Part shown: positions 32,040-33,170 of the stretch, piece after piece | Layout: the number at the start of each line of letters is the position of its first letter | Position numbering within the stretch: the first letter of the stretch is position 1 | IMG/VR virus record: IMGVR_UViG_2531839014_000003 | Coordinates: 64,001-128,000 of that record | DNA length: 64,000 nt | Strand: one strand, 5' to 3' | Origin: a virus | Lineage: Duplodnaviria > Caudoviricetes | Notes under the pieces: generated by a model | The model's database searches: none | What the model was told of the DNA's origin: nothing | The model's input: only the letters and a program-made list of their open reading frames with translations | Made by a program: the position numbers and the translations under genes

Positions 32040-33170
32040 ACAGCTTAGTTTTCACTCATAAAGTGTACTTACGATACCGCCACGGGAAGGCGCTGTCATG
32101 GTATCATTCCCCTCGTTGTTAGAGGGATTGTATTACTTACCTTATCACTCTGCATATGGTCTATCCTGTTTAGTGTTTTGCAATTTTTCGCTAGGCTCTC
32201 CGCCTGTAATGCTCCGAGTGCTTAATCGCTACTTACATTAATCGCTTATAGTTGTTTTTATGTGCCGTTGGTAACGGTGGTTATTACAACGTCAATTTAT
32301 GCTTTCGCCTACCCCGACGATTGTTACTTTTAACAGTTACCCAGATTAATCACTCTTGACTTCCTTTTCCTCTTGTCTCTGCCGTGCCATCCACGCAAGG
32401 AATTGTTAAAACAGTCAATTATAATAAATTAGACTGATAGACCATATGCAAGCCCTAAGGTTTGGGGATGTAACGCCATATCCCGTTTGCGTCCTATTCT
32501 ACACGTAGGAACCGTATCACTGGTTGATAGTGCTGCTAGTACCATTTACGTATGGTGATAGCATTGAGACGGTACAGGATTGATAGCGACCGTTACATGC
32601 AGTTTGTTTCATGCAGTAACTTTGGAAACCCTTTGATTCACACTATATTACGGTTTTATGGATGCTCCGCACGGGGAGCAAACGACATTATCCGATTTTC
32701 AGTGAATCTCCGGAATTAATTTTGACTTTCACCCCGTCGCGGACTGATTTATTACGTGATTCTCAGATTCACGGGCATTCCCTTTTATACAGCGTGTATA
32801 TGCTCAACTCGTTCCTGCGCTTACCCTTTACTGCATCCGTAGTCCTCATTTTGGTTATCTATGGTATTTCAGGTACAATCCCCTTACGCCTAGATTGATC
32901 GGCGGCGGTAATCATTGTAAGTGTGGTACCTGCTTTCACACACGCCAGCACAATTATATGGCATTGCTGATCTTGAGCCGTTGGAAGTATTACGCCGTGT
33001 CCATGCGTTTATCGGTTTCCTAGTTTTATTCTCGTGTGGTACTCTTCCGATAAACCGTCCACACTAGGCTATATAGTTCACTTATGACCCTTTGACAAGT
33101 AGCCCTCAATCCATAATAGATAGTATAGACACTTAAGACTTGTCTCACTGGTAGACCTCAAACCAATTAA
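32040..33170. ncRNA. Candidate large structured ncRNA (~1.1 kb)
   Basis: No credible ORF, raised GC, nested long-range helices (see findings). Confidence 0.55.

Follow-up and report, generated by a model that had tools for sequence, protein, structure and literature searches.

To our knowledge, only a few classes of large structured RNA are known from bacteria and their phages: OLE, GOLLD, ROOL, raiA and HEARO. Each of them has raised the question of what RNA does without protein. Phages also make immunity or antisense RNAs of 70–200 nucleotides (nt) that act by base pairing, such as P4 CI, P1 C4 and lambda OOP. A candidate of similar size to the large classes, with strong comparative support, is described here from positions 32040–33170 of a provirus; the window, to which all coordinates refer unless another locus is named, is the whole 64,000-nt stretch that was analysed, bases 64001–128000 of a 165-kb IMG/VR provirus record. 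GOLLD and ROOL are large ornate RNAs that are often found in phages or prophages (PMC5737381, PMC12286853), where they often adjoin tRNA genes (PMC5737381). Small candidate structured RNAs have also been predicted from IMG/VR; they average 67 nt, and their hosts include Lachnospiraceae (PMC10690425).

The best reading of 32040–33170 is that it holds a previously uncatalogued folded RNA of 0.6–0.7 kb. In full, this reading, to which a probability of roughly 55% is given, is of a new, large, multi-domain structured RNA, encoded in the provirus's regulatory region with its core at 32126–32725, which would stand alone and would probably be a minus-strand product. In the core, structure is kept through compensatory changes and no reading frame is conserved, the pattern by which a structured non-coding RNA would be recognised. 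The comparison set consists of 15 related loci. Among the close relatives, L002 was reached via the proteins that flank the stretch, L193, L174, L224, L250, L226, L243 and L199 were added by a metagenome scan with an internal 18-mer, and L267 was a later addition; the distant homologues L030, L265, L266, L262 and L263 were reached by a profile search combined with a degenerate pattern. Internal 17- and 21-mers searched against IMG/VR returned a single close relative and nothing else.

The fold appears to be built on the closing stem of domain B (~25 bp), which carries three covarying arms. A covariance model of this domain (R1; 32151–32450, 299 positions with 75 pairs, trimmed from 332 positions) matches full-length domain B at 70–142 bits in all five distant phage contigs. 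Pairing was compared with controls in which partners were slid by 1–3 columns and with 500 shuffles. In the R1-fitted alignment of 14 distinct sequences, 62 of the 75 pairs have changes on both sides, and 94.2% of cells are paired versus 37–44% in the slid controls; none of the shuffles matches this. Because it was fitted to the model, this alignment leans towards structure, but unfitted alignments agree in direction. For instance, in plain MAFFT alignments of seven sequences of 32126–32725, RNAalifold gives 127–148 pairs, of which 22–27 are double-changed versus 0–4 in the slid controls, and again no shuffle out of 500 reaches the observed values. Plain MAFFT with RNAalifold did not recover the helices in the distant homologues, which therefore needed the covariance-model alignment. 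An earlier reading of the locus, made from one sequence only and called here the sequence-only reading, had singled out a perfect 15-bp stem (32151–65/32436–50) and had suggested a search for covariation among homologues. That search yielded compensatory changes far above controls in the core, and the stem is borne out: in distant homologues it is replaced as a whole by a different sequence, as in the closing stem of L030 (CGTTTCTGTC/GACAGAAACG). Two further inner helices of the sequence-only reading lose to covarying competitors: 32328–38/32401–11 is displaced by 32332–36/32166–70, 32356–66/32408–18 and 32367–72/32397–402, and 32702–09/32765–72 by 32635–41/32702–08.

Domains C and D covary as well. 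Across subfamilies, hairpin 32464–84 of domain C keeps its loop while its stem exists in five versions (GGGAU/AUCCC, AGAU/AUCU, AGGAU/AUCCU, GGACU/AGUCC and AGCUU/AAGCU), hairpin 32492–32510 covaries from CCUA/UAGG to CCCA/UGGG, and ~100 nt are inserted into the domain in L224, L250, L199 and L002. Within the close family, domain D has changed from GAUUCAC/GUGAAUC to GAACCAC/GUGGUUC, from CGG/CCG to GCAC/GUGC, and from GUUAC/GUAAC through GUUGC/GCAAC to GUUGU/ACAAC. Since ~20 helices with spans of up to 300 nt stay paired through full sequence replacement, a folded single strand, and not a set of duplex DNA sites, appears to be conserved. The single strand could in principle be DNA, as a folded origin or priming site, or the locus could be a recombination or packaging site whose repeats bind proteins, with no functional RNA. 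G–T pairs are tolerated in folded single-stranded DNA too, the inverted motif a/a' discussed below occurs in either orientation relative to domain B, and the repeated words ACTTATTGAC and CACTTATGAC resemble binding sites. Such a DNA-level element is very improbable in view of the helices just described, of its size (600–900 nt, which exceeds any single-strand origin known to us) and of a ribozyme-like element on the same strand in one relative.

The stretch has no coding capacity. Its longest open reading frames (ORFs), of 78 and 55 amino acids (aa), are both on the plus strand; stops occur in all frames, with 17 in frame +1, and no ORF is common to the relatives. In related loci, indels of 1–2 nt inside the most conserved words alter the reading frame, and thus the conservation is not protein-coding. 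G+C is 0.40–0.46 within the stretch versus 0.29–0.39 in its flanks, so that the sequence-only reading was right to note a want of credible ORFs and a raised G+C. Compared with shuffled sequence, folding of 32067–32922 gives z = -4.3 for the plus and -2.9 for the minus strand, and folding of 32135–32465 gives -5.3 (plus) and -4.6 (minus). A decayed protein-coding gene, one of the outcomes that the sequence-only reading had named as fatal to its proposal, or a neutral spacer might be expected in a mosaic region among fast-changing small genes. Either is scarcely credible here, where compensatory changes far exceed the controls, sequence is conserved without a conserved frame, G+C is above that of the flanks, and frame +1 is so often interrupted.

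No known family accounts for the element. The sequence-only reading had suggested a cmscan search of Rfam; with all 4227 families at gathering score, it finds only three tRNAs in the window, and when E is relaxed to 10 for 31600–33600, both strands included, it adds chance snoRNA matches only. ROOL, GOLLD and the group I and group II introns are thus without a match in these scans, and scans of the relatives likewise gave nothing at the homologous place. Where an intron would have the exons of an interrupted gene beside it, the stretch is bordered by whole small genes that have a promoter and a terminator of their own. A search for a published description of such an element found none. The features of the locus are collected in Table 1.

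Table 1. Features of the locus (window coordinates)
Feature	Position	Strand	Details
B-C-D core	32126–32725		~600 nt here, ~700 nt in relatives; kept in every close relative
Module A	32040–32107		TTAGTTTTC 32045–53; hairpin hp1 32053–65; motif ACTTACGATACCGCC 32067–81; hairpin hp2 32073–32105, loop ACGGGAA
Hairpin CCCTC..GAGGG with T-rich tail	32110–32126	plus	Terminator-like on plus strand (terminator scan)
Domain B, conserved core	32139–32461	minus (probable)	Closing stems 32139–45/32455–61 and 32151–65/32436–50
Domain B, inner helices, first set	32166–70/32332–36, 32172–74/32326–28, 32193–96/32202–05, 32237–44/32293–300, 32251–55/32286–90		
Domain B, inner helices, second set	32265–67/32275–77, 32339–53/32421–34, 32356–66/32408–18, 32367–72/32397–402		
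Domain C, length-variable	32462–32589	minus (probable)	Hairpin 32464–32484 with conserved loop, then TTTGCG; hairpin 32492–32510
Domain D	32590–32725	minus (probable)	Stem 32635–41/32702–08 enclosing hairpin 32657–68/32675–87; hairpin ~32592–32620
Module E, variable spacer	32726–32903		Only in window, L193, L174
Motif a' (GGCGGTAATCATTGTAAGT)	32904–32922	plus	Inverted copy of motif at 32067–81
Motif F1	32921–33065	plus	P1 32921–41; P2 32946–50/32965–69; invariant GCATTGCTGATCTTGAGC 32961–78; P3; pseudoknot
F1 pseudoknot	33007–15/33047–55 interleaved with 33034–39/33059–64		
Module F2	33066–33170		Conserved words CACTTATGACC 33079–89 and GTAGCCCTCA 33099–108
XRE/Cro-type helix-turn-helix regulator gene, left neighbour	31748–31966	minus	72 aa; Pfam HTH_3 4.3e-6; PHROG transcriptional repressor families
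Sigma-70-type promoter of XRE gene	31997–32025	minus	GTGACA, 17 nt, TATAAT with TG; 11/12 consensus positions
Coiled-coil gene, right neighbour	33238–33459	minus	73 aa
Intrinsic terminator of 73-aa gene	33172–33213	minus	Inverted repeat 33174–85/33201–12; T-run on minus only

Judged by its relatives, the ORF-free stretch is a mosaic of independently gained and lost modules and not one 1.1-kb RNA. The nine close relatives all retain the core, whereas which of the modules A, E, F1 and F2 accompany it differs from one relative to the next. Module A is ~90% conserved in L002, L193, L250, L226 and L243, absent in L224, and recognisable beside domain B in the distant L030, L265 and L262, where the conserved span runs from module A to ~ +670; between L263 and L266 the conserved non-coding span is 618 nt. 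Hairpin hp1 of module A covaries (CACU/AGUG, CGCUU/AAGCG, UGAC/GUCA and UGGA/UCCA). In L193, L250, L243 and L002, an insert of 315–350 nt sits precisely at the A/B junction; it holds a minus-strand ORF of 71–86 aa, which exists in two unrelated forms and has its own Shine-Dalgarno sequence. At 32110–32126, most relatives have another GC-rich hairpin with the same tail. In place of module E there is other sequence in L002 and L199 and nothing in L224, L250, L226 and L243, and motif F1 is absent in L226 and L243.

The sequence-only reading had described a single plus-strand RNA of ~1.1 kb that fills the whole stretch and is closed by outer helices between 32067–32132 and 32874–32922. What survives of this is a large, structured, non-coding element; the single unit closed by outer helices does not, because the modules vary independently. 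All eight complementary pairs on which it was built are present, six of them perfect and two with one G–T, and minimum-free-energy folds of 32067–32922 and of the full stretch use them. By our own arithmetic, ~6e-4 perfect 15-bp inverted repeats are expected by chance in 1.1 kb, and about two 9-mers. Of the eight helices, comparison with the 15 related loci backs two only. The four outer ones show no conservation: they require 32874–32922, and L002, L199, L224, L250, L226 and L243 either lack this segment or have other sequence there, so that six of eight close relatives are without these helices while still keeping the 5' arms. Changes within the same segment of L193 are uncompensated, 32088–92 and 32124–26 lie in conserved local hairpins, and F1 occurs alone in ~25 phages. 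One RNA of 1.1 kb is, on this evidence, most improbable.

The long arms of the outer helices are two copies of one motif in inverted orientation. Motif a is ACTTACGATACCGCC, and a' is its imperfect reverse complement, GGCGGTA(ATC)ATTGTAAGT, with a 3-nt insert and one substitution (the G–T). There are only two copies in the 165-kb genome. L004, L083, L103 and L263 have motif a', and L002 does not; the copy in L263 is to the left of B and replaces module A, and elsewhere the motif is found singly or in other arrangements. In our view the outer stem merely results from a DNA motif being present in inverted copies and is not a conserved RNA helix, and the locus illustrates how long complementary arms in one sequence can mislead. 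Two other roles for the arms were considered and rejected. The 856 bp between them might have formed a miniature inverted-repeat transposable element or an invertible segment, but neither the stretch nor the arm motif is repeated elsewhere in the 165-kb genome, the relatives have the stretch at the same locus, and the arms can be found alone or differently arranged. Motif a' might have been the start of a helix-turn-helix gene (ATGATTACC); L268 shows that the start of the real gene is at another place and that the motif is followed by nothing longer than frames of 6–18 codons.

The large element is quite likely a minus-strand RNA. RNAalifold computes -102.9 kcal/mol for minus versus -83.4 kcal/mol for plus, and helices predicted on both strands hold 23 minus-only G–U cells versus 10 plus-only. 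At covarying pairs, the ratio of minus to plus wobbles is 78:10 in the minus-fitted and 58:18 in the plus-fitted alignment. At several positions, distant members have Watson-Crick pairs where the family of the window has U–G on the minus strand; on plus, these would be adjacent A–C mismatches in nine sequences. Summed over seven held-out sequences, the minus model beats the mirrored plus model by 17.8 bits. The minus strand is also purine-rich with A-rich loops; on plus, pyrimidines prevail and the loops are rich in U. The wobbles lean towards minus but are not decisive. The sequence-only reading had called the plus strand from two G–T mismatches; these fall in non-conserved helices, and the covarying helices favour minus.

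In L263, the minus strand carries a sequence resembling the type P1 twister ribozyme (1223–1285, equal to G403:C1:79501–79563; 49.5 bits, E = 3e-11 per genome), from which the conserved unit is 75 nt downstream. All of its stems form, the words UAA, CAAG and UAAA are present, and a promoter-like site (TTGACA/17/TAAGAT) lies ~200 nt further upstream. Rfam scans at an E-value threshold found no twister in the window or in L265, L267, L266, L030, L262, L193, L226 and L002. The twister-like sequence would at most be an accessory and not the element itself.

The same large RNA could also be made from the plus strand, which we consider rather unlikely. A promoter at ~32034–32039, just upstream of TTAGTTTC and divergent from the XRE gene, would then drive one transcript of A-B-C-D antisense to the leftward genes. 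Each subfamily does have a -10-like hexamer 5–11 nt upstream of the conserved TTAGTTTC (TAGGTT, TATTGT, TATAAT, AATACT and TATACT); A and B are contiguous in distant homologues; in L266, L262 and L030 the genes on the right of the element are plus-strand genes; and in L263 a module of a' and P1, which elsewhere precedes plus-strand F1, is directly upstream of B. Conversely, a plus-strand RNA does not fit the wobble asymmetry on covarying pairs, the A–C mismatches or the pyrimidine-rich strand with its U-rich loops. Its path from A to B would also cross terminator-like hairpins, an inserted minus-strand gene parts A from B in four relatives, and the twister-like element of L263 is on minus.

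Several observations weigh against a minus-strand, stand-alone RNA. The hexamers upstream of TTAGTTTC are among them, as are the hairpins with T-rich tails that precede B on the plus strand. A consensus scan found no minus-strand sigma-70 promoter between 33213 and 32725 in the window, and a terminator scan found no minus-strand terminator after B or A. The strand tests depend on fitted alignments, and for two of the seven held-out sequences (L263 and L262) the plus model gives a slightly better score. The least biased subset consists of pairs with Watson-Crick bases in every training sequence; there, the wobbles of held-out sequences divide 13:4 in favour of minus in the minus-fitted alignment and 10:11 in the plus-fitted one. 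The twister-like sequence of L263 scores below the Rfam gathering score of 67.2 and adjoins the element in one relative only; a second one (G406:C1:16948–17004, minus strand; 37.1 bits, E 4e-8) is also below 67.2 and lies 11 kb from the element. Distant members show hardly any trace of domain D, whose model (R3) finds one weak copy among them, in L266, at 26.6 bits. Finally, the known family is small, with ~15 loci, and the large element was not found in the Lachnospiraceae sampled (401 genomes by DNA search, 151 by model).

If the stand-alone reading holds, the element would run in the minus direction, as do all neighbouring genes, and module A would usually be attached to the B-C-D core. The RNA could arise as part of, or just after, a leftward transcript of the immunity region that passes the terminator at 33172–33213, which is kept in L002, L193, L224 and L226; alternatively, its start may coincide with the right-hand boundary of domain D. 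In L263, self-cleavage by the twister-like ribozyme would trim its 5' end. Its most likely role, by analogy with what is thought for GOLLD and ROOL, would be that of a stand-alone structured RNA, a scaffold or a protein-binding phage RNA that may act in trans.

A cis-acting role would place the element within the leftward operon mRNA, as a long leader or intergenic part that would control the expression or stability of adjacent small regulator genes of the XRE, ribbon-helix-helix (RHH) and coiled-coil types. The element is always found among small helix-turn-helix or RHH regulator genes and paralogous coiled-coil genes of the same leftward block, no minus-strand terminator separates it from the next gene, and operator-like repeats lie on its flanks. 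This alternative is nevertheless improbable. Between the element and the XRE gene lies a strong promoter that belongs to this gene, the downstream gene varies (the inserted 71–86-aa gene, XRE, RHH or none nearby), and 600–900 nt with ~20 covarying helices is far more than we know of in any bacterial leader.

The two paralogous coiled-coil genes that flank the locus (31386–31655, MTETEKL.., and 33238–33459, MTDSEKL.., both on the minus strand) had no Pfam or PHROG family match, and homologues of them adjoin the element in L268, L226 and L267. Further right, genes for a truncated Ku beta-barrel protein (157 aa, 35052–35525, minus), a RelA/SpoT-domain protein of the synthetase type without a hydrolase match (35770–36978, plus) and a P22-type antirepressor (37108–38028, plus) sit where gene direction switches from leftward to rightward. 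A template array for a reverse transcriptase, as in UG27 systems, was considered and set aside, since no reverse-transcriptase gene is among the neighbouring ORFs scanned. A second ORF-poor stretch, 33500–35050, has as its sole ORF one of 71 aa (33823–34038, plus) that resembles small ORFs of relatives. It is 82–84% conserved in L193, L174 and L224, and the region has a strongly positive GC skew at 33850–34600 and a two-way terminator at 34639–34671.

Motif F1, to the right of the core, is by its distribution a separate, smaller, pseudoknotted motif that is far more widespread than the large element. Its invariant word GCATTGCYGATCTTGAGC (32961–78) occurs in 40 viral stretches, ~25 of which are true homologues with no common ORF. 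F1 is also found in Acetatifactor muris and Lachnospiraceae bacterium A4; other 18-mer matches in species genomes are mostly chance. Stem P1 covaries (GUGUG/CACAC, GGAG/CUCC and GGGAG/CUCCC), as does P2 (CAGCA/UGCUG to CGGCA/UGCCG). The stem 33007–15/33047–55, seen in the sequence-only reading as a separate 3' stem of one RNA, does covary (GUGAU/AUCAC in L002, UUGCAA/UUGCAA in other phages) but belongs to F1, and its pseudoknot partner 33034–39/33059–64 covaries as well (GUCUGG/CCAGAC and AUGUG/CACAU). In many related phages F1 follows a plus-strand promoter of its own (TTGATT/18/TATAAT); the window has GGTAAT in the place of TATAAT. The relatives have a hairpin with a T-run downstream of F1, and the window is without a plus-strand T-run there. 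BLAST searches of GenBank phage records with the stretch and with the F1 region of a relative gave no match. A Skipping-rope RNA (RF02924, 76.6 bits, above gathering score) lies ~1.25 kb from F1 at L013:1241–1321 (minus) and L040:2693–2773 (plus). F1, with its ~25 large phages of Lachnospiraceae from the mouse and human gut, can be regarded as a second uncatalogued RNA candidate.

Module F2 is conserved in L004 and L037, tandemly duplicated in L030 and variable among close relatives. Its word CACTTATGACC, together with ACTTATTGAC and GYAGCCCTCA, recurs beside the element in L226, L262, L265 and L030, with the repeated words present as three direct copies in L226 and duplicated in tandem in L030. 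The F2 words and the ACTTATTGAC repeats look like regulator sites and are possibly protein-binding sites.

A bolder proposal, which we hold at slightly below even odds, is that the locus represents a class of its own among very large ornate RNAs (~0.7–0.9 kb with module A), new and restricted to one lineage of large gut-Bacillota prophages. Set among small regulator genes and in some members trimmed by a self-cleaving ribozyme, such an RNA would work without protein, as a scaffold or in regulating the choice between lysis and lysogeny, with the second new motif, F1, beside it. Like GOLLD and ROOL, the element is hundreds of nt long, has many covarying helices, resides in Bacillota prophage DNA and has no associated protein. 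Unlike them, it is not beside tRNA genes (those of the window are at 5367–5438, 52090–52161 and 52749–52806), and its family of ~15 loci is much smaller. It is set instead among small regulator genes, and this position in a regulatory region beside genes of the repressor type offers a concrete place to look for function. OLE and raiA are likewise large, conserved, structured and non-coding, although they are chromosomal and widespread whereas the present element is phage-borne, rare and without a match to their models. The likeness to twister type P1 is confined, at the element, to the one sequence in L263, with 49.5 bits against a gathering score of 67.2. With the IMG/VR candidates averaging 67 nt, it shares the data source and the phages of Lachnospiraceae but not the size (PMC10690425). 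The element also resembles P4 CI, P1 C4 and lambda OOP in being non-coding and in lying beside repressor-type genes in a region of lysis-lysogeny control, although it is several times larger than any of them.

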